This document shows, piece by piece, positions 6,873 through 51,989 of a stretch of DNA of 64,000 bases. The position numbers and the translations under genes are program-made. The stretch spans positions 47,926,001-47,990,000 of the forward strand of contig CM060731.1 in the NCBI GenBank assembly GCA_030704615.1, given 5' to 3'. The notes beneath the pieces are model-generated. The model was given only the letters and a program-made list of their open reading frames with translations, was not told where the DNA came from and searched no databases. Each line of letters opens with the position of its first letter. Position 1 is the stretch's first letter. This DNA is from Takakia lepidozioides. Lineage: Eukaryota > Plantae > Bryophyta.

Positions 6873-7396
6873 ATCAGGATTAGATCTTGTTTGGTCGGGC
6901 TTCTATTCTTCCCCTCCCTCTCTTTACTATTTTCATTACTTTGTACTTGTAGTTGCCAAAGCCTCTCTTGGTGGAGGCCAGTCAGTCCGGGGTTTTGGGC
7001 TGGGATATTCTGCAGGATCAGCATTGCAGATGGATTTTGGTGTGGGGGTGTTGATGTTTTGATTTCTTGTGTTTGGATCCCCCCCAACACCTGCATGCTT
7101 GACTGTGCGCCATGTTTTTTTTTTTTTTGTGGGCGCTTGCTTTCATAGGGATTAGGCCGGATTTAATCACCGGTCAATCCTAGAGTATGCTGTCGATGAT
7201 GAGGCTGGAGTGATGACCAGCAAGACCACCAGTGTTTCTTCTATGGTGAGACTGGGTTGATGACCAGCCAACCATAGGAGTTCTTGCGGTGGATGCAGGT
7301 GCAGGTGCCCTGAGCCACTGGGATATGACCCTTAAACTGCAACAGGTGCCCACCCGTGTTACTATTAGAATTAGTACTAGAGCCTTATAATGTCAC

Positions 7397-7602
7397 GTGG
7401 GGGAGGTGCACATTGTGAGTGTCATCACGGAGTTACCCAAGGGTTTTGAGGGGAGTGCGGCCACAGGCAGTAACAGTGAGAGTGGGTTCACAAGACGAGG
7501 TATTCGGTTCAGACCACCTTCACCTCCACCCTCAACTAGTGCAGAGTCAGACACAGACTCAGAGGTTTCATCAATAGGTGTGCAGTTTCATTCGCCATTG
7601 TT
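7397..7602 (+). pseudogene. gag, 5' part (interrupted by CACTA)
   Basis: Removing 7603-17542 and one GTT joins ...VQFHSPL to LWDDMEEMYG in frame with the downstream gag. Confidence 0.7.
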
Positions 7603-8829
7603 CACTACAAGAGATGAGCGTTTTTAGGACTACGGGTTTGGCGGAGTCATAAAAACTGCACTAGGTACATGACTACAGAGCGCTGAAATGCATTACAGTT
7701 TTAGTTTTATGACTTTGTAGTAATTGATATCACTACATGACTCCGGAAAATTAGGGAGCATTGGTCAAACATTGTTGAACATGATGACAGGGATGGTTTA
7801 TATGACTAGTGTGATATGTTTGACTACACGTGGACGACGTTTCATGGAATCTTATGATTCCATGACTGAAGATGGTTTCAGAGCTCTATTTATACGACTA
7901 CATCACTACACGTGTCATTTTGAAGGCACATATAATGCAAATAAGGTTGCCCATTAGGTTTAAAAAAGTTAAAATTTTTTGCTAATAAGGTTGCCCATTA
8001 GTGTAATCGTGAACAGAAAGGAGGGCTGGGACTTGGCGTCTTTTTGTCTCCTGCGCCACACCACATAGCTGAGGGATGGAACGCGATGATAGCAGGATAT
8101 GCAGGGGCGCGGGTTGGAGGCGTTGAGCAAATGATGCACGAAGGAGAAGAGGAGGAGGAGACGAGACGAGGACAAGCGAGTTCGCCGTTCTTGGGAGAGT
8201 CAACTTGGTCTTAGCAAGCGTGTTTCAATCTCTAACTACTCATCTACGCCGTAGTGGTTCGATCTGATAGACCAATCTGACATTACCTGACTACAGACAC
8301 AAGCAGCACACACAAGAGGTCATCGGTCAAATCCTCTATGGGTCAGGACAGGTCAAGGACAATGTGGTAGGGCACCTTCTTCTTCAACCTATTTCAGCTG
8401 CATATTGAATTCTGTAAGTTAGGTCGTTGGGTACATCTGTGGTGGTTTGGAGTGACTTTGGCAAGTTATTGCCAGTGTGGCAGTAGGGAAGTATCCAAAA
8501 ACATATAATAGAGGTGAGGAGAAGCGGTGGGGTGAACACTTTCCGACCCCAATGGTGGGACAATGGAGACAAAAAGGCGAATGCCTGTTGGACTACAGAG
8601 AGAAGCAGATGCATTTCAGATTGTGATAAGTAGGGTTGGGGTGTTTTGGGGAAGAACTCCACACCAGTATGGTTGGGGTGTTTGCTGGTAGAATTGTAGG
8701 CTGTCAGAGGCATGGATAGCTGAAGGAGCAGGGATAGAGTGTGGGTCCACATTCATCCAAGAGGGCTGGATTTCAAGCTCCACATTACCTATGATTCCCT
8801 GTGGAAGGATAGGTACAAGAAACCTACAT

Positions 8830-10070
8830 GGGTAGATGGTCAACTGGAAGCGACATGCTGTACTATATGTCATTACTGTACTATATGTCATTCCAGAGAC
8901 TGTCATTGTTGGTCCATGTGTTTTACAACAATGCTATCAATATAAGACTCCTAGTTCGCATTGGAAGCTCAATCCCTGCAAGTTCATTGTGTGTGAAGCT
9001 CAAACTTACGATTTGAAGGATCTTGTAGCCAAGTTCATTCAACCGGAAAGGAGAAATTCTGAAAGCTCCCAAATTTGATGTGGGCAAGCTTATGGAGGTA
9101 AGACTTAGCTTCCCTCCTCTAATGTAAGTGTTGGATAAGTTTCATTTAGTGTCGACCTTCACTGCATATATTGGCTCTTTTCTTGGCTGGTTTCATATTT
9201 TCTTGGCTGGTATGTGTTGGTTGGCTTCTTTCATTTCACGTGTGTAGTGGAAGGGGAGAAGTACTTTCCTAAGTTCTGCTGCAACAATGTCTTTTTTCAG
9301 CCTAGATGTTTTCGATGGATACAAATTGAAGTGTTTTGAATGTTGCTGCAATACTATAATAAAGTGGAGGGTGCTTAATGCAGTTGACCTTGCTTCGTGC
9401 AGGCATAATCCAGGGAAATGTGGACATAGCTGAAACCCCTTGATAGCATTTCCAGAGGACGGTGTGGATGGCCTCACAATCCAGCATGCAAAATCCATGA
9501 CAATGTGGAGCTGGCTGAATGGGCAAACAGGTTAAGTGGCGAACAAGCCACGTCACTGGTACATAGTTGCATGCTTACATAGTACATGAAAGCGTACTAT
9601 ATGTCATTCCCAAAATTGACCATGTTGGTCCATGTATTTTACAACAATGCTATCAATAAAAGACCAATGGTTCGCATTGGAAACTAAAACCCGTAAGTGG
9701 CTGTGCGTGATGCTCAAACTTGTGATTTGAAGGATCTTATACCCCAGTTCATTGCAGAGGTCATTGGAAAAGACATTGAGAAGGCAACAACCATTATCTA
9801 TAATCTACAGATCCCCTTCAATTTCATGTGGGAAAGCCGGCTGGCTGGAGGTCTAGTCTCACTTTCACTCATCTAATGTCAGTGTTGTATCCATTGCAAT
9901 GTGGAGATGTTTGAAACAACATTGGAGCATTTCCAGAGGATGGTCTGGATGGCCTTTCGTGGCGTGTGCCGAATCCATGGCAAGAAAACATTGCAGGCAG
10001 AACCCATGGCAATGGTACCAGCACGGGTTGGTCCAAAGCCAATTGCAACAACAAATGAATAAAGGGTGCT
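8830..10070 (+). repeat. Diverged internal direct duplication within the CACTA (unit about 730 bp)
   Basis: TACTATATGTCATTCC...GGTCCATGT.TTTTACAACAATGCTATCAAT...GTTCGCATTGGAA at about 8878 and 9595; GCATTTCCAGAGGA.GGT.TGGATGGCCT at about 9446 and 9927. Confidence 0.75.
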
Positions 10071-10204
10071 GAAAGGAAAGCACTCCATAATTGATCATAA
10101 AATCCAGTGTCCAAGCATGATATCTTAATGGGAATGCGAAGGGAGTGTTACCACCTTAAACTATCATGCATGGTCTATAACTGGAGTGCACAAATCGCGC
10201 ATAT

Positions 10205-13200
10205 CTAATCTTCATCATCCTCATCTATGTCTGGGTCACTACATGTATCACTGTCTTCATCACAAACTTCATCTTCTCCAAGGGTTGGCTGAACATCATC
10301 ACCACGTATACGGGGTGCTCGGAGGTACAAGGAGGCCACCTGCTCTGGAGTAACCGGTACCGCTCGGCTGCATGTTGGGCCATCAGTAACCAGAGTCTCC
10401 TCTAGTCTTTGTGGGGCTAACAATCCTTCCACTTCCGCCACATCATCATTATCAATTGATATGTCGCAGACCACTCTACGTGCTCGGGGGCTCTTCTCCA
10501 GGACTACTTTCCACCCCGGCTCCTTCACACAATCAGAAAAAAAACACTTGATCAACCTGGCCAGGAAACACAAAAGGTTGCTCAGAAGGTGGAAGCATAC
10601 GGTTAAAATTGACAAGTGTGAAGCCAGCATCATCCTGCTTCATTGACATAGGTTGACGACCCACGCAACTCGCCCGTACCCACGAACACAAAAACACTAT
10701 AGGTTGTGTTTGGCCATAGTCAATTTGCAAAATCTCCCTTATAAGACCCACATATCTTGTAGGTTCCTCCATGTCATTGCCTGAATTGTTGGTGATGGGC
10801 TGGTGCTGGAAAACAGATGAGACTCCGCAATCAAAAGACACCATACTTGTTGTGTTCATGACGGGGGATGTAACCCTGTAATGGTTACCATACGCTGGAG
10901 GCCTTGAAAGATCCAGTAATTCCTCACGTGTTGTAGGATCAAGCCCATCTGATTGAATTGAGAGATGATCCCGTACACCTTGAGGGAGCCAAACAGCAAA
11001 TGGAGGACAAGGATGCAAATCAGGAGGGTACTGAATTGCCGTGGGATTGCTCATGCCTTCCAGCCCTTGCTCCTCACGAAACAAGCGTCATCTGGCTTCT
11101 ATTCGTGTGGACTCTGCTTCATATATCCTGTCACAATCCGAGGGTCAGCCAGGAGATTGACAGAGGTGGCGTGGGAGACTTGAAAAGACGCCATATGCCA
11201 ACTAATGATAAATGACTAAAACTTGGAAATCTGAATGTCAATGAAGTAGATTTCTTACCCCAACATGACTGATAGACGAGGATGGTTCTGAATGATGTAC
11301 TCATGTACAATATCATACAGGTCATTCAATTTTCGGGCTTTAGAACTTCCTTCCACAACTTCACGTTCCACAGATTCTGCCTCATCTGCATCCCACACCC
11401 TTCGTACACTTCCATCAAATCCTGCCATATACTCTGTGCAAAAACCCAATGCTTCTTCAAATTGGTATCCTTCTGCCATGCTCCCCTCGGGCCTTGCCAT
11501 GTTTCTTACGTAGCCCTTCATATCTTTCATTGCCCGCTCCATGGGGTACATCCAACGAGATGCTACGGGCCCACATAAGTACAACTCATCCACTAGGTGA
11601 ACAACCAGATGTGTCATCACAAAAAAAATGATGGTGGGAACTCCTTCTCTATAAGACACAGAGTGAGAACTGCTTCAGTTCTCAATTCCTCATACTCTAC
11701 AGGATTCACCACTTTTGCACACAACTTCTGAAATACACGACATACTCGCAAAATGGCCCTTCGAGGACCACTTGGCATGAGCCCACGGATAGCAAACGGT
11801 ATAATTTGCTGCATGAGCACATGATAGTCATGTGATTTCATGCCTGACAACTTCTTCTTCACCACATGCTTTTTGAAAGCTGATGCGTAGCCTGTTGGCA
11901 CTTTCAAGTTCTGCACAATCTCTAGAAAGACTTGTAACTCAGCCTCAGTGAGGACATAAGGGGCAGGAGGCATAATTAACGTATCTGCTCTATCAGGATC
12001 ACGTTGTAGCCACAATTCCGGGCGCATCCCAAGTAGCTCCAAATCACGGCGAACTTTCAATGTGTCTTTCTCACCAAAGATAGTTTTAATAATATTTTCA
12101 GCCAAGTTCTTCTCGCAATGCATTGCGTCAAACGTGTGGCGGATGAGGAGACCCTACAAAATGAACACATAAGCAATTGAGGCATTAACTCATCACAATT
12201 TAAACAGAAAACGCAAAAATGTACACAGCCAATTTAAAGGCCATGAAGGAATTACCTCCCAATAAGGTAAGACATATAAAATTGACAATCGCTTAACTCC
12301 ATGAGTTTTTGCTGGGTTTGTCCTGCTATCTGGCGTCCCTCCGTTTTCCACCCATGCAGTGCGAGCTGTTGCAAGGTCCTTGATTTGTGTTCCAGTCTGC
12401 GTTTTTGGAGGAGTTCCATGCTCAGTAGCGCCATTGAACATTCTTGACCTTCTATATGGATGATTGCGGGCCAAAAATCTTCGGTGGCCTAGGAAAACAA
12501 ATTTTCCACATGTGTGTAACTGCTGTGAAGTCACCCCGGGTCCACAAGCTGGACAACCAACATAACCTTTCGTCACTTGACCTGAGAGCAAGCCATATGC
12601 AGGGTAGTCATGGATTGACCACATCAACACTGCCCTCAGTGTGAATTCGTGTTTACCACGAGGACGGGAACATCATGAGCTGCAATCCCTCTCCATAGTT
12701 CCAATAGCTCTTCCACTAGGGGCATCAGGTAAACATCTACGTTGTCCGAGGTAACAGACTCCTTACCAGGAATCAGTAGCGCTAACATGACAAAGAACTT
12801 TTTGGTCATTAACCACGGAGGCAGATTGTAATTGACCAAGAGAACGGGCCATGTGCTCCAACTTGTGGATTGAGCTCCGTAGGGATTTACACCGTCTAAG
12901 GCCAATCCAAATCGCAGAGATCGTGGCTCTGCAGCAAAATCCGCAAATGTGGTGTCAATGTGTCTCCATGCTTTGCTATCAGCTGGATGTCGAACCAACC
13001 CATCCTGGCTCTTATGTCTGTCATGCCATGTCATGAGGTTAGCGATCGATTTACATCGGTACATACGTTTCAACCTTGGAATGACAGGGAAGTGTCGCAA
13101 TACTTTCTTGGGCACACTTCCACGACCTGGAATGTAACGGGAACTGTGGCACACTGGGCAAATGTCTACATTCTCATACTCCCCACGGAAGAGTACACAA

Positions 13201-13740
13201 CCACGCTCACAGGCATGAATCATCGTGTACTGCAATCCCATCTTGGCAATCATGGTTTTTGCTTCATAGTGAATTTTCGGCAATGAATTCTCTCTAGGCA
13301 AAAAACTCTTACGCAACAATCCCAGAAGCTCATCCACAAATGCATTGGTGCACTTGTGGGTAGTGCATGCGTTCAGCAACGTCAAAGTTGCTTGCAGCCG
13401 GCTGATGGAGCACCCTTCAAAAAGTGGACATTGCGACGCTCGGAAGAGTTTATCATACTCGGGATCAACGTGCAGGTAAGCATTCTCATCAAATTCATTG
13501 TCTCCGGAATCGTCGAGATCATCGTCATGATCGGCAAATGTGTGATTGGTTCCACCATGAATGGGGTCCTCTCTGTTTGCATCTGCAAAGAGAAACGCTT
13601 CCTGCAATGCACGTTACATTTCTACCTCCAATCCACCACTTTCATCTGCGTTCTCTGTGACATTGGGCTCCCGCTGTGCCGCAGGGCCTTCGTCTTCATC
13701 ATCTGAATATTCACATCCCTGCATCCCAATAGTCATCTTG
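10205..13740 (-). pseudogene. CACTA Tnp2/TnpD transposase (Transposase_21 plus DUF4218- and DUF4216-like regions), frameshifted
   Basis: IHACERGCVLFR..CPVC, LRHFPVIPRLKRMY, RHPADSKAW, LALDGVNP, STWPVLLVNYNLPPW, WSIHDYPAY, DAMHCEKN, MKSHDYHVLMQ, RWMYPMER, RPEGSMAEGY, QPFVFPGQVDQVFF. Frameshifts near 12650, 11630 and 10540. The 5' end is uncertain. Confidence 0.93.
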
Positions 13741-14470
13741 TGAGTGGACCAACAACGATGTGACACTTGTTCATATTATGAACATATATGACTACATGAC
13801 TACACATGACCAATGAAAACACGACATGTGCATTAATTAAAGTGATAACGGAAGTGGCGTAGTCATACTCACGTCTGTATCTTATGACTTCTTGACTACA
13901 ATCACCCAACGAAATGTCGACATGTGGAGAAGATGATCGTTGCATTCAAAATTCAAACTAAAGTGCTGAAGGGAAAGTGGCGATCTTACCGGAAGAGAAC
14001 GTTACTGGCAGACAGAGGTGTTCCACAAAGTGTCGGGCAACATGAAGAAGGCAAATGGTGCAATTCTGAATCCTACCAAGACTGGCCGTGGTGGGAAGGC
14101 AATGGTGGAAGCACGCTTGGTAAGTGGCATCATCACGACTCTGTATTTTGTTCCTCATTGAATTGCTATGTGTATATAGTCAGCCCTCACATTGCTTACT
14201 GACTTGTGGCATGGGTTTGTTTGTGGCATGGATTAATTTGTAGGAAACACTATCAGGGTGCCCTCCTACATTATATGAAATTCAAGAGGGTTCAATGTCA
14301 CGGTTGTCAGCTGGGAGTGACAGGCGGGTAAGTGTGTTTTCCACGTTTGCTAGAGTGGTTGCTGCATCATAGGTTGCTAGGGTTTTTTTCACGGCTTTTG
14401 GCCTGGGTTTTCTTTCCAATGGTTGTTCATGCTAGGTTTTTGGGTTTGATTCATACTTGGGCAAGTTTTC

Positions 14471-16368
14471 ATGGATTGGCAGGAGGGAAGTCTCGCATAT
14501 TCTACAGTAGTTGACAGGATGGATGGCTTGGACAAACTGGTGGAATCACAAGGACGTGACATGGTAGAATTAAAATTACAGATGCAGAGTATGATTGAGT
14601 ACCAGAAAGCCATTGTGACGAGATTGGGGATTAATCTACCATGCACAGGACCAGTGATATCTACGATGGATACGTCTGCTGTGACAGTATCAAAATGTTT
14701 GGAATCCCAATTTCAGACGGTAACTGGTGCTCACTCTAAGCCCTTATGTCTTCCTGTCACTGATGATCTTTTGAATTTGACCGAGCAGCAGCATGATACA
14801 GGGAAGGCCAGCTGTGAGGTACACGTGGAAATTCAGTCCTTGCCACGTACAAAGGCAGTAGCAGTCCAGGGGGCAATGGTGACAGAGCGGCCGGGCACAC
14901 CGGATGCTGGTATGCAGGTATGTGGGAGTTTAGATGGGGAGGAAGATGTAGACGGGGACAGCCAAATGTCAGTTTACTTCCTGGACCAACGAGGAAGCAT
15001 TTACTAATTCTGGACTTAAATGATCTGTTATGTGAATCTTTTCATTCTGCTAATGGGCCTGCATCCCTTCCCAAAGGTTTTGTGGGGAAGATGTGTGGCA
15101 AGAAGATGGTAGTTTTGAGACCACGCTGTTATGACTTTTTGCAAAAGTGTTTTGAACACTTTGAGGTGGCGGTGTGGTCTTGTTGCCAAGCTCGCAACTT
15201 CTTCCCAATGGTGGACTATATTTTTGCAGCCCACACTAACCTGGTTTTCCAGTGGGATGCCCTTCACTGTGACGAGGATCCAGTCCTCCCATGCCGTAAG
15301 GGGTCTGATTCAAAGCCATTATATTTCAAGAACTTTGTCTACAGTGTGGGCAGACTGGCCAGAATGGACTTATGAGGACACTGTTCTTGTTGACGACACA
15401 CCAAGAAAGGCGGCAAACAATCCTCCCTTCAGTGGGATTTTTCCAGAGCCATGGAAGGTGCAACCAGATTCACCAACTGATGAGTATCTAATAGAGGTGT
15501 TGTGGCCTTTCTTGGGGAAGGCATCGAAAGCTGCCAGTATTCCCAAGTTTTTGGAGTCTCAGCCTGTTTTCGGACAACAACTATACAACACTGCTACTGT
15601 GAAGGTACAAACATTCTGACAGTGCTCCAGAGGCTACATTTTTGTGGGTTCATTCATTGCATTGCTTTCCTGGATTCTTCTCCTCGGTTGCTTGATTAAT
15701 GCTAGGTTTTCTTTGCAGCTTTTCATGTTGGTTTTTTTTGTTTGATTCATACTTGGATTTTGTTTCTATTCACTATTCCTGTTTGCTCATTGCTTTCCTG
15801 GTTGATCTCTGGTCTGTGACACAGGAACTTGTGACAAACAAAGGTGATATTGTCGACAAGCCGGTACAGACGAGGGGCAAGAGTGTCGACCCAGCGAGTA
15901 GCCCCCCAAAAGAGGTCTCACCACCACTGGAGACTGCAAATGGAGTAAGTCCAGGCCGTTGTCTTGTCTGTTATATTTTTTCCAACCTTGGGGCTCTCTT
16001 TAACTCGCAAATGTTGAGTGTCCTAGTCGTGTGTATGTCATGGGTTTTCACATCGTGTTCTTTTTTGTGTGGAGTTGGGATCACAGTTCAGGGTGGGTGA
16101 CGAGGTTCGGTTGTTGGATGTGAACTCCAAACGCAAGAAATGTGGAGTAGGGCTGATTGTTGCTCTTCAAGGTGCTGTGGTGGGTTACGGGTACCCTGTT
16201 GTGCCCCTCGATTATGCCTGTGTGTACATCAAAGAGGCATGTGTCAGTAACATCCCTCTACCATATGTGAATGGTATTAGGAAACAGACCGAGTTGGGGC
16301 AGGTGGTTGGCCAGACAACACTTTGGAGTCTAAAGTTACTGAAACTTATGGAGCTACGGAAGGGATAG
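14471..16368 (+). pseudogene. CACTA second gene, divergent from the transposase: coiled-coil region, NIF/FCP1-like HAD phosphatase domain, and a C-terminal Tnp1/DUF8039-like domain
   Basis: RKHLLILDLNDLL..., VLRPRCYDFLQKCFEHFEVAVWS, KPLYFKN, DTVLVDDTPRKAANNP (NIF family pattern). 16069-16368 VGDEVRLL...CVYIKEA..NIPLPY...LGQVVGQTTLW resembles En/Spm accessory domains. Two frameshifts. Confidence 0.7.
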
Positions 16369-16959
16369 TCAGTATTGCATTGTTTAACAGAGTTCTTGAT
16401 TCTAATAGCATTAGAACATACTAGCTACAACAATTCAGCCCAATGTGTGGGCTTGTTTTTGGCTGGGCCTTTTGAGGCATGGATTTTTTGACCTTGTGGC
16501 TTTTGAGGTGTCCATTGGGATATTGGTCTCATTTGGATTTTTGTAATGTGATTTATAGGGCTTGTATTGCCCTGTACTTGACTATTTTCATTCTCCTTGT
16601 GGTTGATAGTATGCAGGAGGGATCCATTCTGTTTTCATATTGGAATTTCACCATGTAATGAAGATTTTAAATCATTTAATTCCCTTTCATTTTAAATAAT
16701 AATATTAAAAATAATACCATTAAAAAAAAATCCAAGGCTGCAATCTCCCTGTTCTTTTAAATATTAAATGAAAACTAAAAATTAAAATATGAACATTAAA
16801 AATATAAACTATTTCGGAAAACAATCTTGATGACACGTGGCATCACTCTTGCTCAAACCAGAACACGTGGCAGTATATGACACGACATTCTTTATCCATA
16901 TTTTCACCACGTGTAAAGATCCGTAGTCATATATGCTAGTCATATATTTTGTCTGTGTG

Positions 16960-17345
16960 CCACATGTCACATCTCAAGTGCAACAGGTGTCCCGCTAATA
17001 TCTCTCCATGTAGACATCCCTGTAGTCATATGAGCGAGTCATGTAGTCACCACGTGTGAAATCTGCCATAGCACACGTGTCTCGCTAGCGCCTCTCCATG
17101 TAGGCATCACTGTGCAGACATGTAGTTATATGATCATGGCAAGAAGTCGTGACATGTCAAATTCGCAGTGGCGCACGTGTCCATCCGTCGCCTCTCCATG
17201 TAGGCATCACTTTGCAGACATATAGTCATATGATCCTCTGACGAATGCATGACGTGTCGCTTGTGCAGTGGCGCACGTGTCCCGCTGAAGCCTCTCCATG
17301 TAGGCAGCGCTCAGCAGATAATGTAGTCATATATTAGTCATATAG
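16960..17345. repeat. CACTA subterminal tandem repeats (about 100-bp unit x4)
   Basis: CTCTCCATGTAG at about 17002, 17092, 17192 and 17292, with CACGTGTC and GTCATA motifs. Confidence 0.85.
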
Positions 17346-17542
17346 TTGTGACTGCAACCCTCTCTGCAGCAGGACTCCAGGTGCCACGCAAGCAGTCATG
17401 GATATGACTTGCAAAACGCAGTCCTAAAGACTAGTCGCTATGACAGGGCTTTTTTCACTACAGAGTGATGTAGTCATGAACGCATATAAGACTGAAAAAA
17501 TAGTCATATGTGAAGTCATAAAAATGCTCATCTGTTGCAGTG

Positions 17543-18640
17543 GTTGTGGGACGACATGGAGGAGATGTATGGAGCTACCAAGGGGCCTCGTAGGTACTCT
17601 GGAGCTGTGGGCACAATTGAGGTGGATGACTTTATCTAGGAGTTCGACAGTTGGTGTGATTTGCAGCAGATGCGCAATCCACAGCTGTTCACCCCATTCA
17701 TGGCGTGGAAGGGACTGTTCCAGCATTTGGAAGGCCCGCCTATGGACGATTATCACAAGTTCAGGCGAGGACATGAAGCAGAGATTGAGGAGTGGAGGAT
17801 GTATTGGTCACCTGACTACGTCTCCATTACTCGAGGCACGACGCGACCAGTAGCTGCATCAGCACCAATATCTCCCACTGCCAGCACTAGTAGTGGAACA
17901 AGTAGTGTCGGTATTTCTACAGGTGGTACCAGTTCAAAAGGTGCTACTACTCCTCTTGCCACGACTACATATGTGCCTAGATTCAACCCGGTGGTGGAGT
18001 TCTTCCAGGAGTTGCGGAAGAACTACCAAGGTGTACGGACAGAGAAGCTGCGAAGTTTGCAAGACTTCCAGTGCAAACCCAGTGAGAGCCTGCAAGAGGC
18101 GTACACTCGTATGAGGCGCTTGATAAGTGTGACCCAACGGGTTATTGAAGCTCAGGCAATCCAGTTCTGGTTTAGAATTTTGGACAAGGAGCTCAGGAGA
18201 AGGGTGCGGGATGCAACCCTGTTACAAGCAGCCCAACCCACATTAGCAGATGTGTTTCTGCTGGCTGAGCGGATTGAACTCAACATGGTGGAGGAGCGAG
18301 TTGTTACCATTGGATTTGGCAAAGACATGCCTGCACAAGGCGCAACTGCCAGCCCACAGGCACAAGGGACTGCCCAACAGCGTGGTCAGGGGGGCAAGGT
18401 TTCCCAACCCAAATTTCATGGAGCTTACAGGGGACCTCAGGTGCAGAGGCCAGTAGCATCTTTTGCAAGCCAACAGTAACCAGGGGTGATATGTTGGACA
18501 TGTGGAGGACCCCATGTCAAGAGAGATTGCCCAGAGAGTGGCAAAAGGCCGACACAAGCACAGCCTGCATAGTTGCAGTGTGGACATTGTGGCAAGTATG
18601 GGCATGGAGATGCCCAGTGTTATGACTTGCAACTTGAGTT
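17543..18640 (+). pseudogene. gag, main part with two CCHC zinc knuckles
   Basis: Retrotransposon gag-like LRSLQDFQCKPSESLQEAYTRM; CWTCGGPHVKRDC (about 18490-18530) and CGHCGKYGHGDAQC (about 18578-18620); in-frame TAG/TAA stops. Confidence 0.85.
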
Positions 18641-19479
18641 GCGCCCAGGCCAGTTCCAAGGGAACAATGGTGGCCGGGGGCGAGGTAGACCAGCCTAGAG
18701 AGGACAAGGTAGCCGGGCACGAGGTGCAGGCCAAGGGCAAGCTCAACATGGCCAAGGACGCGGAGGTCAGGGTGTTGATCAAGGCATGGCCAATCGGCTT
18801 CAGCAGCTAGAGCAGAGGCTCGCTGCCATGGCTACAGCTCAGGTGGTACTGGCTCCCAGGCGGGATGGTCCACCTCCTGCTCCTGAGGGAGGAGATATGG
18901 GAGGCATGGGATTCATGTGCGGAGCAGCACTACCACTAGAGCAGATGGAGTCTGCTGCAGCCGTGACTCGAGGAGCAGCACGAGTTCCTGAGCCACGAGG
19001 TGCAGAGGTGGAATTGGAATCACAGCGTGGGAAGGCAAGCCGTCAGGCAAGGCTTCCTCAGTCATTCACATTGGCGGAGACAGTGTCGACGCCATCCATG
19101 GCACCTAGTTCTCGCCGGACTGTTACCGAGGCGGAGGTTACTATGCCATTGGGGAGAGCTACACGTGCATCACTGACACCTGCTACCAAGGCTAGTGCAG
19201 CCGGTGTGTTATTGGGGGCAGCCACCTCTGTGTGTCAAGCCCCATTGTTCTCGACAACCATGATTGCGACGCCGGGTGTAAGACCAGCTGCAGTGTTCAG
19301 ATTAGCAGCAACATTCTGTGAGAGTGGGGAGGTCACTTCATCTTCTGCGGAGTTACTGGAAGGTGTAGTGGCAGAGGGATCCTCGAATTTGAGGGTCAAG
19401 ACTGCCACGGCTGCGCCATGGCCAGCTGCAGCTGCCAGGTTGACGGAGCTGCCAGCTAGGCCAGCTTTTGAGCGCGCCA

Positions 19480-19880
19480 TGGTGACATCTGGAGTTGTCT
19501 TGTTAGACAACCATGATGACATTTTCTCTTTGAGTGGACCGGCAGGCAAGAAGTATCGGCCACTGCGGGTCTTGTTGGACTCGGGAGCTCAGCCACTAAT
19601 GTTGGGCAGAGCTACTATTGCAGGTTTAAGCCTCATAGAGGCGGATATGGAGCCTTGTCCTTTCCAGATACAGACATCTCTGGGAGGATCAGAGGAGACC
19701 GGGGCATGACACGACGTGGGTTGGCCATTAGACTGCAGCCGGATCATCCTATAGATGGCTCAATGATGCGAGCCAAGGCCATTGTGACAGACACAGTCTC
19801 TTACGATGTCCTCGTTGGTGGGGCAGTGTTATATCCCATGGGCTTCACCCTGGACTTTTGGGAGGAGTCAGCATCTTACA
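19480..19880 (+). pseudogene. Retropepsin-like aspartic protease domain of pol
   Basis: VLLDSGAQ (DSG at 19578-19586) and a downstream YDVLVG motif after a frameshift near 19700. Confidence 0.85.
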
Positions 19881-20289
19881 GGCCTGGATGGCAGTCAGGG
19901 GATGGTCGTCGTGCACAGCTCCCTGTGACATTCATTGGGGGTATTGTGGCTGCCCAGCGGGGCAAGATGCCAACACTAGCCGCCTTTACAGCTGCAGTTA
20001 GTTGGCCTGGAGAGTTGCTGGATGGCAATGCCCATGCAGAGGATGTGCCACCTTCAGCAGAGCAGGATGACATGCATGGTATGGCGGAGTTGCCTGCCAT
20101 GGTTGCTCACACTCCATTGTGGGGTACGAGCAAGGATTTGCAGCAGGCTGCCGATGGACGGGTGCAACAAGCCTGGGTAGAGGCCTTCGTACCATTAGGA
20201 GAAGAGGAGAGTGCGGTGATTGCACCAGGACCACCTCAGTTGTCGCCATTGGATACCATACCTCTTGTGTGGCAGTGCCCGGATGAAGG

Positions 20290-20827
20290 CATATGCCTTC
20301 TGGACTTGTTTGGCGGGATCAACACTGGATTGGCTACAGTGCTGCAGGCAGGTGTACGAGTTCGATGTTACCTATATGTGGAGAGGGATTAGACTACACG
20401 ACGCGTCTCAATACGCCATATTGCTTAGTTGGTACAGCAGTACCCTGATTTGTTGCCAGTGTCTGCAGTTCGTGGATACCAACAAGCCTTGCCAGCAGAC
20501 ATTTCGTTGCTGGGGGCGCAGGATTTGGAGCAGGTTGACTCCATTGATCTGGTAGTGGCAGGTTGGCCCTGCCAAGGGCATTCATCAGCCGGGCATGGCA
20601 ATGGATTGCGAGACTCAAGGACGGGTCTGTTTTGGGAGATGGTGCGGGTTTTGCGCCACTTGCAGCTTCATCAAGCTGTATCTCCAGCATACATCTTGGA
20701 GAATGTGCCACTGATGGGTGATTCTTGGGCCAGGGTGATGGCCAGTGTGCATCAAGTCTGGTCGTGGCTTGGGTCAGCAGTGTTGCTGGATGCAGCTGCA
20801 GTGGGGTCACGGGCTCATTGTCCACGG
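20290..20827 (+). pseudogene. C5 cytosine DNA methyltransferase domain, motifs I-VIII, within pol
   Basis: Motif I LLDLFGGINTG (20297-20329), II YVERD, III ADI, IV DLVVAGWPCQGHS (catalytic Cys codon 20570), V DSRTGLFWE, VI YILENV (20690-20707), VIII LLDAAAVGSRAHCPR. Same frame as protease C-terminus and integrase, with two TAG stops (20390, 20426). Confidence 0.92.
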
Positions 20828-21880
20828 CGACATTTTGGGGTGCGACGCACTCATAGTCTACTGCAGGGGCAGTATTGGTGGCGTGGTATGCACACAGAGG
20901 TGCAACAATTTGTGGCTAGGTGCATGGTGTGTGACAGGGTGCGTGCTTCATTCAACGCCCCTACTTCACAATTGCACCTTCTTCCGATCATGGGATTGGG
21001 CTACATGTGGAGTCTTGACTTCGCAGGGCCGTTGCCACTGACCACGCGCCACAACAAGTACGTGTTGGTGATGGTGGAACACTTCTCCAAGTGGATCGAG
21101 TTGGTTCCATTGCCTGATAAGGCTAGTGAGGGAGCCGCATATGCATTCTTGGATTGTGTACTTAGCCGATTCAGTGCTCCAGCTGAGGTACTCACGGACC
21201 AAGGGAGAGAGTTCTTGGGGGAGTTTCAGGCTTTGTGTGACAAGGCCTTGATAGACCACCGCACCACTTCTCGGGATCATCCTGAGGCCGATGGCTTGGC
21301 AGAGAGAGTTGTTCAGACAATAAAGAGGGGTTTGCGCAAGTATGGCTTGCAGAAGGGACACCTAGGAGATTGGGACCTTCAATTACCTTGGTTAGCCATG
21401 GGTTACAGGTTCAGTAAGCAAGCATCACTTGTCTCCTTCTCACCATACTTTCTTCTCTTTGGCCGAGAGCCGGATTTGCCTACATCCATTCGTAGAGAAG
21501 CTGCTACAGTTCTTAACCTTGACGATCCGGACGTGTGGGCACGTGCATGTGATCAGCGTGCAGAGTTGTTCAAGAAAGTCATGCCCATAGCTTTCGAGAA
21601 CCTTGTCATTGCCCAACATCGTGATACGTTGAGGTATGCTACCATACGTGGTGGGGGCTATCGTCCTGGGGTTCGGAGATTCAACCATGGTGACTATGTC
21701 TATCTGCAGCAGACTGCTCCTACGACCTTGGATGTGACTGCAGGACGTGTTATTTTGAGGGTTCGAGAGGTCTTGCCCTCAGGCGTCTTGATTCTGGAGG
21801 GTCGGGATGGCATAACTTGGAAGGACCATGTGCGTAATCGTGCGCCATGTCACCTTCCAAATGTCGATGGCAAGATTGAC
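20828..21880 (+). pseudogene. Retroviral-type DDE integrase (first zinc-binding His deleted)
   Basis: HFGVRRT...YWWRGM...CMVC, WSLDFAGPLP, VLTDQGREF, HPEADGLAERVVQT, SPYFLLFGREP. Confidence 0.95.
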
Positions 21881-21913
21881 CCAAACCTGGCAGTGGTATC
21901 TGCAAGTTTGAGG

Positions 21914-22057
21914 TGCATATTGTGTGGGTCTGCTAGAGGGGCAGCCACCATGCTGGTGTGTGATCGATGCTCTAAAGGTTGGCATATGGGATGCTTGACT
22001 CCACCTCTTGAGATGGTTCCGGATGGGGATTGGTTATGTCCACATTGCATTGGATAG
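21914..22057 (+). other. PHD finger at the integrase C-terminus
   Basis: CILC...MLVCDRCSKGWHMGCLTPPLEMVPDGDWLCPHC has C4HC3 spacing. Confidence 0.93.
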
Positions 22058-22306
22058 TGGGAGTGGATACAACCATGGAAGGCTAACAAGAAACGCAAGG
22101 CCAAGTTACTAGGAGACCTTGAACACACGAGATCCTGGCTCAAGTTCACAGATTACAAGACGACGACTAACGATGGGGCTACTCTTGTACCCGGCCTCTT
22201 GGTCTATAGAGTTTGAGTACAATAGGGACAGTGATAGAGGACTTAGTACGGCTGTGGCTATTACATCTTGTAGCTATCTGGAGTTAGAGGGACCTATCTA
22301 CCAGCT

Positions 22307-22316
22307 AGGGGGGCGA
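22307..22316 (+). promoter_or_regulatory. Polypurine tract
   Basis: AGGGGGGCGA one base upstream of the TG that starts repeat B1. Confidence 0.7.
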
Positions 22317-22317
22317 T

Positions 22318-22402
22318 TGTGGCAGACTACTTTATTGTGCATATATGCATGGTGTGGTTTGGACAATGATGTAGTTGTATAGCGATATGTATGCGCACGA
22401 CA
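22318..22402 (+). repeat. Terminal repeat B1 (85 bp)
   Basis: TGTGGCAGACTAC...GCGCACGACA; 5 differences versus B2. Confidence 0.92.
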
Positions 22403-22404
22403 GC

Positions 22405-22754
22405 TGTCAAGTTAAATAAACACAGTGTGAAACTAACTAGAATAAAGCTAGTTATTTGTATTTAACACTTGGATTTAGTTCAAGTGTTAAGTCAGGTGTC
22501 AAGTTTAGTTTGACACCTGAACCGTCTTATCTTCACGAGAGCATCAGTCGTGCGGCTCATCTCTCTCGAGTTGAGCCTGCACGACCGAGCTCCTTCACCG
22601 TTCAGAACCTGAGTGTGCTTACGAAGGGATGATAGGTTGTTGTGCGGTGGAGTCCCCATAGCTTGGGGTGCCCCTGGCTCGACTATTATTTTAAAGAGTG
22701 ATGGTGTTGTGTTTTGTGTTTCTCTTGTTATTTGAGTTTAGTTCTTTCTTATCA
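22405..22754 (+). repeat. Terminal repeat A2 (350 bp)
   Basis: Direct copy of 3880-4229. Confidence 0.95.
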
Positions 22755-22755
22755 T

Positions 22756-22840
22756 TGTGGCAGACTACTTTATTGTGCATATATGCGTGGTGTGGTTTGG
22801 ACAGCGATGTAGTTGTGTAGCGATATGTATGCGCAGGACA
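22756..22840 (+). repeat. Terminal repeat B2 (85 bp), right end of the element
   Basis: Direct copy of B1; followed by TSD GGGC. Confidence 0.92.
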
Positions 22841-23153
22841 GGGCAGATGATGCGTGCAGGGGTGAAGGCCAACCACATCACATCTGTTTGCGTTTGCAAT
22901 GTATGTGCGAGCTTGGCAGCCCTGGCATGTGAGGACACTATGTGAGGCAGGGCAACTAAAAGAGGCTCTACAGATTTTGAGCGAAGGAGGCATTTCTGCA
23001 GATTCACATACTTATGTTTGTCTCTTGCATAAGTGCATCAAGATGCAAGGCCTTGAAGCTGGAAAGCATGAGCACTCTCACATTCTCCAAACTGGATTCA
23101 ATCCCGATTCCCACCGTTTTTCTGCTCAACACCCTGGTCAGCAGGTATGTTAA
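22841..23153 (+). pseudogene. PPR fragment, 3' part, including a second copy of the 3516-3750 segment
   Basis: GQMMRAGVKANHITSVCVCNVCASLAAL, then TLCEAGQLKEALQIL...GFNP near-identical to 3516-3750. Confidence 0.85.
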
Positions 23154-24227
23154 AGGCGCCATCCTGGAGCCTCCGATGTGTCAGCAGAGATGCCCCCATC
23201 TCCGACCCCTGCCATCTCAATGTCTTTTCATGCTAAGGGAGAACACTCACCCCTTTTCCCAGCCTTGGCTGCTCCCCCCCCCCTCTCCTTGACAAACAGA
23301 TTTCACATTGTGTGCATTGAATTCTCATCACTTCCTGATGCTCATCTGCTTAATTTGTTCCCACATATATCACATGACTCCTCCCCAATACGATGGCCCT
23401 CTATCTTCACCATGCATATGCTGATTATCAAGCTCGTCTCTTTAAAGTGCATACACAAGGACTGGTCTCCTGATTCTACCAGTTTCAGCCCACCTCTACC
23501 TTATCACACTGGACCTCTTCATAAACATTTATTGTTTACATTCATGTGTATACTATTATACCAGAACCACACAATGTCTACCTAGCATGTATATTTCTCC
23601 CCAATTAAATGACAAGGTCTTGTTCCTTGATACCATCTACACCATATATTTGATGCCCCTTGATCACCGTTCTAATCATCATCTTCTTTTTTCAGGTTCA
23701 GTTTCAAGCAAGAATTACTCAGCATCATCGATCTCCCCCCCCAAGCTGCTTGGGCATTTGGGCTCTCCCTATTTCAAACAACCTCACACCAATATTACTC
23801 TCTACTCTCCATGATTTTACACCAAAATTTTTACTCCATGTTTCTAGTCAATGTCTCTCACAAGCACCACTTCACTATTCATCGTCTCCTAGACGATTAG
23901 CATCCATCATCTACTCGTCATCGCTTCCTAAAACTCTTATCCTTTAAAAAAAAAATTCTATAATACTTCATCGATATTATTATAGAAATGCTATGGGTAA
24001 AGTTGTTCATACTTACTACACTGTGAGATCCTTCAGTTGCTTCTTTGACTCATCTTTCACTACAAAAAGGATGTAAGATGTAAGAGGATCTGCGCTCAGA
24101 TGTACATAGCCAACTCCCGTCTCAAACTAAAATTTAGACAAGTATTTGTGCTTCACAATAAGAAGTAGAAGGAGAGAGACTTGAAACCAAATTGTGATTG
24201 TTGCTGTTGCGATGTTCCACCTCCTTG

Positions 24228-26692
24228 TCATGTGATGGGGTGCAGCGGCCAGTACACCTCACAGTGGATAGCATTTTGGACACAGGGAGGCAGTCTCAAC
24301 GTGTGAGACACGATGACCGTTCGCATTTGGCAGTGGTCAACAGGGTGGGTCAACCACGAGCAGCATTACCTACACTGCTCAGCTTCCCAGGATCCCATGC
24401 TTTTCGGGATGGTGGACCTAGCCTCTTGTGGGATAGCCAGTTGCAACAATTAGTGGAGCCCAATGTTGACGAGCGCGAGCGGTCGATTGGTTTTACCACT
24501 GGTACCATGGCGGTGCCATCTCTTTCTGAGGCATCACGTCGTCAGGTGTTGGGGCAAGCAATGGATCTCAATTGCTTGACCTGGATTATCAGCTTGGCTA
24601 TGGCTGAGCAGCGCAGAGTACAGAGTACACTTCCCTTCATGGTCTCCCTGCCTACCGAGACGATATAGGCAGCGAGTGGGGGCGAGCAGGTGAGGACCAC
24701 GAGGTGCAGGCCGCATCCATGGCACACGTGGGAGGTGCTCGAGGTTCAGAATGAGTTGGCAGCCAAGGCGGCGGTGATGGATCAGGTTGGGGATTTTTCT
24801 CGGGTTGAGGAGGTCCTCAAGGATGGGATGATGGGGCAGGGTGAGACATTGTCACTGATAGAGGAGGCAGTGGTCACTGCTCAAGAGGTTGCAGCATAGC
24901 AACCACGGGACGCGTCTTCTACCTCTAAGCCTGCTGAACTCAAGGTTGCAGTCACGGAGGACAACTAGGAGCCTGATGTTGGACCTATAGTCACCGGAGG
25001 AGAGAGACGACGTATACGGCGATTCTTGAGGGCTTAAAGGAACTGCTTTGCCTTCAGTTTGAAGGACTTAGGAGCACTGAAGGGTCAAGAGATTCGCATT
25101 GAATTGGCTACTGACACGCCAATCTTTCGGAGACCCTATAGATACAGTGACATGGAGAGGTCCTTGATTCAGATGAGAACTCAGGACCTTTGGGAGGCTG
25201 GTTTGGTGGAGCTATCTGGGGGAGAGTATGCTTCAGCCACAGTGATGTAAGCCAAGAAGGATGTCTATGGCAATTGGACGGAGAGACGTATGTGCGGTGA
25301 TTACCGGCCTGTAAATCGTCAGACCAAGTCCGATAGGTATGCTATGCCGACACCAGATGAGATTTTTGATGCCATTGGGCATGCTAAGGTCTTTAGCACT
25401 TTGGATTTATGATCCGGATATCACTAGTTGCCGATCAAGGAGGCGGATAAGCAGAAGACGGCATTCTGGGGGATCAATGAGCACGGGAAGGATTGCCTAT
25501 ACCAGTGGCGGTTCTTACCATTTGGGCTTAAAAACGCTCCTGCAGAGTTTCAAAGAGTCATGGACAGGATTCTAGCAGGGGTGGAGTTTGCTCGGTGCTA
25601 CATAGATGACATCATCATCCAGATTGAGTATCTGGGTCACATGATATATCCTGGAGGATTGGGGGTACAGCGGACTAAGGTAGAGTCCATTGCACAGATT
25701 CCACGCCCCATGGATGTGAGCCGAGTTTGAGCTTTCATGGGGTTAGCAAACTATTATAGACGGTTTGTCAAGGGATTTAATGCCATTGCAAAGGCTCTAA
25801 CCAAGCTGACCAAGGTGGATTAGGAGTGGCAGTGGGAAGATGAGCAAGAACGAGCTTTCCAAGAGCTCAAGGCGAGGTTGACCTCGGCGCCCATCTTGAG
25901 ACGACCTATCAGGGGGCGTCTTTTTCAGCTGCATACAGATTGGAGCATGCTGGGGCTTGGAGCGGTGCTCACACAGGTGGATGATGAGGGAAGAGAGTTC
26001 GTAGTGGCTTATGCTGGTCGCTCGAACAACGCTGCAGAGGCTAAATATAGCTCATATGAGGGAGAGTGTTTAGCTGCAGTGTGGGCCGTGGCACACTTCA
26101 GGTGCTATCTATATGACAATCTCTTCACCCTTGTCACGGATCACCAACCATTCAAGTGGTTGATGGAGTCAAACAAGCTTACGGGGAAGCTTGCACGGTG
26201 GGCACTAATCGTTCAAGAATATAACTTTCAGGTTGTGCATCGACCGGGTTTGGTCAATCGCAATGCAGATGGGTTGAGTCGCAATCCACGCACGAGCCAA
26301 TAGGATGATACTGGAGCTCGGTGGCATGGTGAGACGGACGAGGAGATGGTGCCCGGATGACATGCATTTGCATTTCTGTGTATCTTGGCAGCGGAAGGCC
26401 AGGTTGGACCTGCAACAGAAATGACTGTAGATCAAGTGTCTGAGGATCTTGAGGCCAGCAATGAGCAAGGTGGCGCCAAAGATATACATGAGGATTCAGT
26501 TGTGTTGGACTACCTCCGCAGTGGAGACACTGCAGCCACTGTGACTGCCAAGGAGAGGGATCAGATCCTACAACGAGCCAAGAGGTTCAAGTGGGAGGGG
26601 ACACACCTGCTCCGAGTGTGGGAGGATGGTCGAGTGAGGATTGTGCCTCACCCAACACAGCGGGCACGGTTAGTGCGGCATGCCATGAGGAG
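24228..26692 (+). pseudogene. Displaced pol block: MTase target-recognition region and motifs IX-X, reverse transcriptase, RNase H, integrase N-terminus
   Basis: EPNVDERERSIGF (IX) and RRQVLGQAMD (X). RT: RMCGDYRPVN, FSTLDL*SGYH, KTAFW, LPFGLKNAPAEFQRVMD, YIDD. RNase H: LHTDWS, YSSYEGECLAAVWAV, VTDHQ, NADGLSR. Ends at RIVPHPTQRARLVRHA(H)EE. Many stops, plus a deletion after YIDD. Left boundary approximate. Confidence 0.92.
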
Positions 26693-27834
26693 TACCTCTC
26701 CGCATGTGGATGGGAGGAATTCGGAACGGGAGGAATGGATTCCGAGTTTCAAAATCAATGTACCAAATTAATTTTACCCTTGACCACAAAAGAATTTCGA
26801 AGAGTAAGTTCAAACATTTATCCTTAGTACGGGTAAGGGTAAGTAAGTGTGGCTAGGTAAAGATATAGTCGTAAATATACTCTTGCACTCAGTGTATTTC
26901 CGGAAGTTTGATAAAACCAGAATTTTTGCCCTGAAAAAGCTGTTAGGAACTCATATTTTGGTCCTCCACTAAATTGTTATATGATAGAAAATTCTGAAAT
27001 GTTTTTGAGGTGGTAGCTTACCCAGTTGGCTCACCTTCTATACCTTCACTTCTAATGGAGCTATTAAAAGTAAAGAATGTTATAGCAATCAGTGGGACTT
27101 TCTTTACTTACTTTTCTGAGCACCGGTCATTCCTTTGCTGTCCATGCAAAACAAGAGACTTTGTGGGTGTGTTTGTTCATTGGGTGACTACATGTGAGCA
27201 TGCATTTCGTTTGAAGTGAACCAACCCTTCATAACTTACTCTCTGGAGTTGTAAAGTTGTGAGATTGGAAGCAAAACAAACACTTTGAACAACTTGTGAG
27301 GGCGGAAGATGAAGAAAGAAACAATTGTTGGTGCAATCATAAGTGAATAAAATGATCAAAGCCAAAGCCGCAGGCTTCAAGTACAGTATGAATTTCCGTG
27401 CCAAGATTTTGGGCATTTCATGTCTTGGGCCCAAATTGGCCCATCAAACAACAACGTCGTCCGACATTACGGAAGAATACATGCACAGTGTGCAGAGCAG
27501 CAGATGAGGAAGAGATGAATTCGCGAGAGGGTGTGGGTTTGAGGGGGTTTTAGACTAATTTGTTGAGATAAGGTTTGCCAGCTCTGTGTGGGCGGCGTGC
27601 TTATGTCTTTGAACTTTTGAACCTTCTGCGCTTCCGTCTGTTGTGAGCCCTAAGAGGAACAACCAAAAGCCTGCACTCAGTCTCGTGGGTTTTGGAGTTC
27701 GTTCAGATACTGCAATTGGGTTGCTTGTTATTGATTGACAAGCTTCAGGAAGCTTTTCAGGATGTGGGTTTCGTCAAAGTGGGTTTGACAGAGAGGCGGC
27801 TTAGTCAGGCACTGGGGGCAGGTGGAGTCCCCCC

Positions 27835-51929: not shown

Positions 51930-51989
51930 AAATTCACTCATGTGGTCTGTGGTGCAGGTTTGTTCATTTTTATATATGATGTACATTTT

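Follow-up and report, generated by a model that had tools for sequence, protein, structure and literature searches.

The window analysed here, a stretch of 64,000 nucleotides, carries a Ty3/gypsy retroelement in which, as an earlier sequence-only reading had claimed, a cytosine methyltransferase (DNMT) lies between the protease and the reverse transcriptase (RT). The start proposed at 17543 had to be moved: the copy is larger than first reported and extends on the forward strand from 3880 to 22840, bounded by a 4-bp target-site duplication with GGGC at 3876..3879 and again at 22841..22844. The left GGGC is situated within a PPR pseudogene (PPR_2, E 3e-7), the frame of which continues beyond the element. 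The Atlas look-up for the host gene returned generic PPR clusters only, which do not identify the host. The element opens with repeat A1 (3880..4229), whose first letters, TGTCA, form the left integration end. It is adjoined by a predicted primer-binding site (4230..4241) and followed by a 5' leader (4242..7602) with intronless fragments of RPL15 (+ strand) and RPL6 (- strand) and, at its end, the first gag codons. A CACTA transposon of 9.9 kb, separate from the retroelement, is nested on the reverse strand at 7603..17542; it displays terminal inverted repeats, a 3-bp target duplication (GTT) and the domains Transposase_21, DUF4216 and DUF4218. The letters preceding 17543 in other copies were found in the window at 7585-7599.

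All features downstream of the transposon are on the forward strand. Gag (17543..18700) contains CCHC zinc knuckle(s) (zf-CCHC, E 0.0015) and 4 stops, and matches Marchantia ORF1 pieces at 50-78%. The aspartic protease (19479..19939) was assigned by its DSG motif at 19578 and is frameshifted near 19699; none of the protease pieces of the window gave a Pfam match, and Asp_protease_2 was detected at the matching place in a relative (P0030). Motifs I-VIII of a DNMT3-like C5 methyltransferase, kept in relatives, occupy 20279..20828. They are followed by the integrase (20831..21700; second half of Integrase_H2C2, E 1e-11, and rve core, E 5e-14), which has no stops, and by a PHD finger at the integrase C-terminus (21914..22048; E 6e-10), for which the nearest solved PHDs are those of CHD4, PHF12, KDM5A/B, ATXR5 and PHF21A. 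A polypurine-tract-like run kept in relatives (22308..22316) adjoins repeat B1 (22317..22402; 81/86 nt identical to B2). Repeats A2 (22405..22754) and B2 (22755..22840) complete the element, the last letters of B2, GACA, forming the right integration end. Beyond it lies a displaced segment, the first part of which (24229..24620) was recognised from motifs and related loci as the DNMT target-recognition region with motifs IX-X. Its second part (25077..26693) contains RT (YIDD at 25599; RVT_1, E 1.5e-9), RNase H (RT_RNaseH, E 9e-33) and the start of the integrase, with several stops and about 107 nt missing within RT. A 262-nt contig from run X2 spans the junction at 24229 with zero differences.

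The motifs named by the sequence-only reading, from DSG through DLFGG (20303), GWPCQG (20561), ENV (20699) and AHCPR (20813) to ERERSIGF (24471) and RRQVLGQAM (24537), were all located where it had placed them. A PF00145 match was obtained (E 3.5e-12; 4.4e-13 with X at the two stops), and rve, PHD and RVT_1 were likewise detected in Pfam searches in which the window pieces were analysed singly, unspliced, the domain order being taken from natural contigs. The description of the methyltransferase as full does not hold for this copy, in which it is split in two pieces with 2 stops and about 43 nt missing. Judged by its letters, the window copy is dead and rearranged, the segment with DNMT-C, RT and RNase H having been displaced to 24229-26693. 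Its in-frame stops amount to 16, of which 12 lie downstream of gag, the family stop described below not being counted. The repeat identity of 98%, which had been taken as a sign of recent activity, belongs to the A1/A2 pair (343/350 nt) and thus roughly dates the insertion; the 16 stops suggest that the copy was already defective when it inserted, or that its repeats were homogenised.

With a copy so scrambled, and with the joint 20828/20831 not among the joints listed, the fusion might be thought an assembly artefact or the chance nesting of a host gene. This is very improbable, and at family level it is refuted by copies elsewhere. A 5009-nt contig from organism B (run X7) holds the segments corresponding to 19980-20828, 24229-25619, 25619-26684 and 20831-22322 in this order at about 95% identity. 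Among 80 related metagenome loci that were compared, many of them decayed, 16 are collinear from gag to PHD; since these loci share a single host group, their counts are not independent. The reconstructed order gag-PR-DNMT-RT-RH-IN-PHD is thus a natural one. The same fusion recurs in named liverwort, peat-moss and algal genomes: the element DNMT is 51-71% identical to Marchantia records, with further relatives in Sphagnum and Calypogeia, Marchantia polymorpha accounts for 16 of the 35 homologue matches, and locus L005 matches a Sphagnum fallax record at 100% identity along stretches of 141 and 138 aa. In chlorophyte relatives the DNMT is positioned behind RNase H. The two positions seem to track the streptophyte/chlorophyte split, which suggests that the capture goes back much further than a single algal lineage.

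The claim of a land-plant host was borne out by an Rpb2-family gene whose identity to a Ceratodon protein is 57-64%, the group of matches ranked next reaching 35%; from this one gene the host is likely a moss. A PDB search with this subunit did not separate Pol II from Pol IV/V. No report of such an element in a land plant was found in the literature searched. The family is not peculiar to this host: numerous records come from Marchantia, Sphagnum and Calypogeia, and in quick trees it falls with an element of the alga Klebsormidium. Neither the homologue matches nor the 30 clusters included a named record from a vascular plant, a hornwort, Physcomitrium or Ceratodon, which does not amount to absence because the searches were word-limited. 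Atlas matches for the element were PF00145 clusters only, likewise uninformative about the host. In IMG/VR, two distant methyltransferases (33%) were found and the element integrase gave no match; a 16-mer match in a phage-like contig was dismissed as chance, the contig having no element domains. A diverse alignment gave no usable pattern.

The methyltransferase is DNMT3-like and of the C5 cytosine type, as far as its residues and predicted fold can tell. In a relative (P0003), DNMT3A was the best match by sequence (E 6e-12) and by fold (E 1.5e-14, TM about 0.5). The domain is intronless, unrearranged and Dnmt3-related with its key residues present, and the catalytic PC, ENV and RxR are kept in the family; in the 80 decayed loci, ENV was recovered in 73, DLFGG in 66 and (G/R)WPCQG in 59. 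Canonical motif order is shared with human DNMT3A/3B and with plant DNMT3 and DRM, but identity to them is about 20-23%, PWWP and ADD domains are absent and, unlike DRM, the enzyme is not rearranged and belongs to a Gag polyprotein. Between lineages, dN/dS was 0.13 for DNMT-N, 0.06-0.10 for RT/RH and 0.08 for the integrase, with dS near saturation. Among the decayed loci it reached 0.67 for the DNMT, a within-family dS value being available for one of five domains. Read within the limit set by dS, these ratios indicate that the DNMT is under purifying selection.

The sequence-only reading had the methyltransferase embedded in pol and directly upstream of RT. The two do share a frame, but a family-wide stop lies between them (TAG, then CAA CCA, at 24897..24905), so that they are not directly fused; Gag-PR-DNMT forms ORF1, closed by this stop, which makes "embedded in pol" inexact. 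DNMT and RT are in the same frame and separated by a stop in the window and in 41/43 loci, with TAG/TAA-CAA-CYN at the end of ORF1 in 41/43. Records from Marchantia, Calypogeia and many further sources terminate 54-180 aa past the DNMT; in Klebsormidium-type records the DNMT continues into RT with no stop. CAR-YYA is a context for stop readthrough. With this conserved stop, the enzyme would be translated together with Gag, upstream of a likely readthrough site.

A primer site of the Tf1/Tcn1 type is predicted from complementarity: the site adjoining A1 is 12/12 complementary to 4034..4045 (+ strand) inside A1, likely the first 12 nt of the transcript, and the two are paired in the MFE fold. 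In the window the letters differ on both sides of the pair while pairing is retained, a compensatory change. A match of 9-11/11 at the same position was found in 19/26 5' A copies, and 7/26 lack a good match at the expected place. Relatives have a TATA-like box 29-31 nt before the primer, which is absent in the window. Integrated copies have the layout A...B-GC-A-B, starting with TG at A and finishing with CA at B, with no GC spacer at the ends. They end within the unit delimited by the purine tract on one side and the primer site on the other, contrary to a canonical LTR element, but share with it the TG...CA ends and a target duplication within 4-6 bp. Of ten loci in which this duplication could be scored, 7 (6 of them independent) agree at 4/4 letters, as does the window, and the other three at 3/4. 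The B1-A2 boundary forms a palindrome, GACA-GC-TGTC (22394..22409), which is a putative integrase attachment site. A2 and B2 meet exactly end to end (A2|B2) in 7/8 complete loci, the remaining one (L036) carrying an insert; L020 and L039 retain primer-site letters there, as expected of a cDNA end junction. In a distant relative (L083, RT 42% identical), a single contig that ends inside the palindrome, the purine tract is followed 113 nt on by the same 13 palindrome letters. Ten loci end in a single B. Their origin as products of 1-LTR circles is disfavoured; L041, with a single B, has a flank in common with L068, which reads B-A-B, and later loss through B-B recombination is therefore preferred.

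Taken together, we put at roughly two in three the probability that this is a Ty3/gypsy family, likely of a moss, whose Gag-protease-DNMT3 polyprotein likely methylates its own cDNA and which likely integrates from a circle cut at the palindrome. ORF1 ends with UAG-CAA and RT-RH-IN-PHD follows in frame; readthrough would yield the long protein, so that the DNMT would be made and packaged in amounts like those of Gag, well in excess of RT and integrase. The 11-12 nt behind A pair inside A, and the RNA may prime itself as in Tf1. Primer site and purine tract before B would then define a linear copy that carries B-GC-A at either end, the ends could be joined by ligation or by an end-to-end RT jump, and the DDE integrase would cut behind each CA of the left-repeat palindrome. 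The PHD may tether the integrase to H3 tails unmethylated at K4, in which case the copy would land pre-methylated in silent chromatin. If a 2-LTR circle were cut freely, the mirror form A-B-A...B should arise as well; as this was seen at 0/26 5' ends, polarity must be added to the scheme. The inactivity of the Klebsormidium enzyme in a yeast assay, taken up below, also speaks against this reading.

Such polarity could come from the enzyme itself, if the DNMT methylated the CG/CHG palindrome, shielding one copy from the integrase and setting which is cut. The palindrome, with two CG and two CHG sites, is identical letter for letter in the distant DNMT-bearing relative, although the coding DNA of the element is CpG-poor (o/e 0.48-0.57), and methylation of the palindrome would account for the missing mirror forms. 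The proposal is purely inferential, and integrase contacts alone could explain the conservation; we consider it improbable. Its wider form is a comparably long shot: a Ty3 group spread across the green lineage, overlooked because its ends defeat LTR finders, that habitually integrates from palindrome-cut circles and packs a Gag-level DNMT3 to methylate the palindrome and choose the cut copy. If true, it would represent a restriction-modification-like switch inside a retrotransposon particle, also in Marchantia.

The substrate may instead be elsewhere, the DNMT acting chiefly on host chromatin or other elements, or damping its own element to spare the host, with cDNA not a substrate. At the Gag level the enzyme would be made in quantity, and the protease could release it; organism A also harbours the family in great abundance (summed contig depth thousands of times that of the flanks, although depth is not copy count). 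A Gag-fused enzyme is, on the other side, expected within particles. Host benefit and methylome effects are discussed in the excerpted text of PMC5890265, which also describes an ordinary plant-type methylome for Klebsormidium, and this alternative seems doubtful to us. Methylation of the element's own cDNA remains our preferred reading. Earlier descriptions of DNMT-bearing retrotransposons concerned dinoflagellates and a single alga, in which their role was not open to testing; with the Marchantia polymorpha relatives, it can be addressed in a plant for which genetics and methylomes are available. From the stop that follows the DNMT, each particle is predicted to contain many copies of the enzyme. 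The structure of the ends offers a mechanism by which an oddity of the Klebsormidium element, so far unexplained, could arise, and it points to circle-junction integration, a long-debated retroviral side route, as occurring in nature.

DIRS, PAT and Ngaro elements use a tyrosine recombinase. Their repeat layout, A1...B1-A2-B2, is present in our element (PMC5890265, in excerpt), and SymbioDIRS-Dnmt3, of DIRS type, also bears an active Dnmt3 according to the excerpted source. The ends might be made in a DIRS/PAT-like manner, through a single-stranded circle and a tyrosine recombinase acting in trans, or along an unimagined linear route, with the DNMT binding nucleic acid non-catalytically; the yeast assay of the Klebsormidium enzyme was negative, its authors calling it inconclusive (PMC5890265, in excerpt). 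Such a route is distinctly less probable than the alternatives on the DNMT substrate. The ORFs scanned gave no tyrosine recombinase match, and the element has, unlike DIRS-type elements, a protease, target duplications and an intact DDE integrase (rve) under selection. The TG...CA ends, the variable 4-bp duplications and the kept catalytic PC, ENV and RxR also stand against it.

The closest known system is KnitGypsy-Dnmt3 of Klebsormidium nitens, likewise a Ty3/gypsy element with an intronless, unrearranged Dnmt3-type enzyme under purifying selection and the DIRS-like repeat layout (PMC5890265, in excerpt). Record KFL_009030040 (PR-DNMT-RT-RH-IN) falls on the same side of one branch as our element in DNMT and RT trees (SH-aLRT 99-100 and 90; quick trees with no host DNMT3 outgroup), and its integrase is the nearest named row. 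Our family differs in being very abundant, in land plants, with a C-terminal PHD, a region which the partial Klebsormidium record does not cover, and with a stop between DNMT and RT, where PMC5890265, in its excerpted part, assigns the DNMT to the frame of RT; that part makes no mention of self-priming, 4-bp duplications or the palindrome. The conserved stop, Tf1-type self-priming with a compensatory change and the A...B-GC-A-B ends were not found in the literature searched. The self-priming chromoviruses Tf1, Sushi and Tcn1, the last with moss hosts, share the Ty3 order and a primer site that adjoins the repeat and is complementary to a stretch inside it (PMC6317226 and PMC4600332, in excerpt). 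Compared by these descriptions, our element has split repeats, a DNMT and a PHD in place of the chromodomain, no Chromo match being obtained behind the integrase in Pfam searches of the window pieces. Finally, the DDE integrase of foamy virus and HIV-1 cuts a CA-spacer-TG palindrome in 2-LTR circles to generate integration ends (PMC1180852 and PMC4372172, in excerpt). In those viruses the end-to-end junction itself forms the palindrome, and the route is a side route, whereas in our element the palindrome lies within the repeat, the end junction survives integration and the route is apparently the rule.

The element extends from position 3880 (TG) to 22840 (CA) and is flanked by a GGGC duplication; this end and the duplication move its left border well upstream of 17543, where the sequence-only reading had placed it. 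It was inserted in a PPR pseudogene, the frame of which resumes across the element. About 230 bp of this target are doubled across the element (3517-3739 and 22903-23132, 94% alike) as part of a local rearrangement. Nested in the retroelement (7603-17542) is a CACTA element flanked by a GTT duplication; its ends are clear, it has subterminal repeats of 100 bp, and it carries DUF4216/4218 and, at 14818-15616, NIF phosphatase fragments. The leader contains an intronless RPL15 fragment (4566-4890, forward strand) and an intronless RPL6 fragment (about 5290-5620, reverse strand, apparent 5' UTR included), both possibly captured host mRNAs, and a 256-codon open frame at 6102-6872. The copy is dead, because it shows 16 in-frame stops beyond the one typical of the family, a frameshift and deletions. 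Its end repeats differ at 7/350 nt (A1 versus A2) and 5/86 nt (B1 versus B2). Contig depth summed over the element exceeded that of its flanks by a factor of thousands, a figure which reflects abundance and gives no copy number.

The six-frame translation displayed each of the proposed motifs at its position: the protease DSG at 19578, and methyltransferase motifs I to VIII within 20290-20827 and IX and X within 24450-24570. The methyltransferase domain was recovered as a Pfam DNA_methylase match (E 3.5e-12; 4.4e-13 once two stops were replaced by X); rve, Integrase_H2C2, PHD, RNase H and RVT_1 were matched as well, and a zinc knuckle weakly. The window itself reads gag-PR-DNMT(N)-IN-PHD, followed after 2 kb by DNMT(C)-RT-RH. 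The original order had been reconstructed as gag-PR-DNMT-RT-RH-IN-PHD, and the pieces are indeed so arranged on a single 5009-nt contig from run X7, which represents another organism, at about 95% similarity; two of the joints there hold additional nucleotides (about 43 and about 107). Runs X1 and X5 also show RH joined to IN, and a contig of organism A spans the left border of the displaced piece without difference. The joint at 20828/20831 is absent from the joints listed for contigs compared with the window element. Among 80 related metagenome loci, gag through PHD is collinear in 16, and a DNMT placed after RNase H occurs in none of the 80.

In these decayed loci DLFGG is present in 66/80, ENV in 73/80 and (G/R)WPCQG in 59/80; motif VIII reads AHRPR in 28 and AHCPR in 8. 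Comparison of the window with the loci gave dN/dS values of 0.13 (DNMT-N), 0.06-0.10 (RT/RH), 0.08 (IN) and 0.19 (PHD region), with dS near saturation. Another DNMT-RT-RH-IN family, more decayed and 36-50% identical to the window, adjoins the first in the same host (L062, 1-4800, reverse strand). The 35 longer homologues of the DNMT include 16 from Marchantia polymorpha (51-71% identity) and one each from Sphagnum troendelagicum, Calypogeia fissa and Haematococcus lacustris; 16 records carry no organism label. Profile search added relatives in Sphagnum fallax, Klebsormidium nitens, Mesostigma viride and Chromochloris, and cluster look-ups (n=30) added Closterium and Scenedesmus. For an intact relative, P0003, DNMT3A was the best match both by sequence (E 6e-12, versus 1e-4 for DRM2 and 4e-3 for HhaI) and by fold (E 1.5e-14; predicted model, pLDDT 72.5).

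The DNMT lies before RT in 61 rows of relatives and behind RNase H in 68. In the DNMT tree the two architectures are set apart by one branch (SH-aLRT 100; 99 with Klebsormidium added, 110 rows), as does one branch of the RT tree (50 rows, SH-aLRT 90); the IN tree needs two changes, owing to one divergent row. These were quick trees of mostly unnamed rows, with near-duplicates and rows of unknown order excluded and no host outgroup. Named pre-RT members are streptophytes and named post-RH members chlorophytes. A single old capture of the DNMT, followed by relocation, is likely. The large sister group, in which the DNMT follows RNase H and precedes integrase, comprises P0034, P0060, P0255 and 65 more proteins, the named ones being chlorophytes (Haematococcus, Scenedesmus, Chromochloris); no description of it was found in the literature searched.

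At one fixed place between DNMT and RT, 41 of 43 scorable loci show TAG or TAA followed by CAA-CYN; the window reads TAG CAA CCA at 24897. We take this context to be like the CAR-YYA readthrough signal. Marchantia, Calypogeia and many unlabelled records end 54-180 aa past the DNMT; in Klebsormidium-type and several Closterium records the DNMT continues into RT. Since the stop is kept between DNMT and RT, the DNMT of land plants is, as judged from sequence, part of the Gag frame. It would then be made at Gag-level amounts, and RT would follow by readthrough.

The ends of the window element and its relatives are laid out as A1...purine tract-B1-GC-A2-B2. Of 10 scorable loci, 7 (representing 6 independent insertions) repeat the four letters preceding A1 directly after their last B, and three of four match in the other 3; L005, the contig of which stops in A2, was left out. 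By eye, no tRNA-type primer site was evident behind A1 in the window or relatives. In 19 of 26 5' copies, the 11 nt after A are complementary to A positions 157-168 (9-11/11 paired; 7/26 are not); in most cases a TATA-like box precedes this stretch by 29-31 nt. Letters differ on both sides in the window and still pair 12/12, and the pairing is present in the MFE folds of the window and of L018. The arrangement is of Tf1 type (PMC4600332, PMC6317226, as far as their accessible parts go), and the element RNA would prime its own reverse transcription.

The purine tract and the predicted primer site set B-GC-A as the predicted reverse-transcribed repeat. The integrated ends fall inside this unit, at the palindrome GACA-GC-TGTC. 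A2|B2 would then be the junction of the right with the left cDNA end; this join is exact in the window and in 7 of 8 complete loci (L036 has an insert), and L020 and L039 show primer-site letters there. Joined cDNA ends would subsequently be cleaved at the palindrome; cutting of 2-LTR junctions by integrase is described in the available text of PMC1180852 and PMC4372172. The mirror form was found at none of 26 5' ends, which speaks against free cutting of a circle. If RT jumped from end to end, it would meet the left palindrome first and so produce the observed polarity, and a methyl mark on the palindrome would yield it equally. Ten loci have single-B ends; this form is likely secondary, because one of them has its flank in common with a B-A-B locus. 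In the more distant L083 (RT 42% identical), a purine tract is followed 113 nt on by the identical 13 palindrome letters. L083 (1-10362) is a GC-rich, DNMT-bearing Ty3 element ending in this palindrome; it is filed with a metagenome-assembled genome of a bacterium, but the contig is likely algal and misbinned. A 16-mer palindrome scan of IMG/VR returned a single, unrelated match.

To what was observed in the sequence (domains, order, constraint, stop, complementarity, ends and duplications), the proposed mechanism would add methylation of the cDNA by the element's DNMT and a histone-mark preference of the PHD. The closest solved relatives of the latter are the CHD4, PHF12, KDM5, ATXR5 and PHF21A fingers, most of which read unmethylated H3K4.

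Elsewhere in the window, a multi-exon divergent second-largest RNA polymerase subunit of the Rpb2 family (37291-42773, reverse strand) shares 57-64% identity with Ceratodon KC19_7G093600, and identity falls to 35% in the next group. It scores about equally against RPB2 and Arabidopsis NRPD2/E2, and a moss paralogue of Pol IV/V type is likely. The PPR genes and the CACTA element with DUF4216/4218 agree with such a host, which is very probably a land plant and probably a moss. A PPR-class gene similar to plastid pTAC3 has exons at 27805-29660 (forward strand); the Atlas shows PPR clusters only. MULE-like remains occupy 48393-61277 (MULE E 0.004 at 54205-54936; Ulp1 protease at 51414-51926), with long inverted repeats (48854-49411/60727-61277 and 43396-43642/56321-56571) and tandem arrays of 10, 30 and 40 bp. 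A tandem repeat with a 172-bp unit (about 4 copies) is located at 1114-1922.

In the open-access running text searched, neither land-plant copies nor the palindrome end mechanism were found to be described. The accessible portions of PMC6453930, PMC11982613, bioRxiv 10.1101/2021.02.12.428880 and PMC6317226 do not mention DNMT-bearing elements. Those of PMC12344493 and bioRxiv 10.64898/2026.05.21.726589 cite the work on KnitGypsy-Dnmt3, the Ty3/gypsy element of Klebsormidium nitens with a Dnmt3-type domain, for 'streptophytes', land plants being unnamed in those portions. KnitGypsy-Dnmt3 itself is described, in the part of PMC5890265 available, as having repeats of DIRS-like layout; the yeast assay of its enzyme was inconclusive. 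The present element is real and a land-plant variant of this known algal kind, and its end anatomy and stop supply a testable mechanism.
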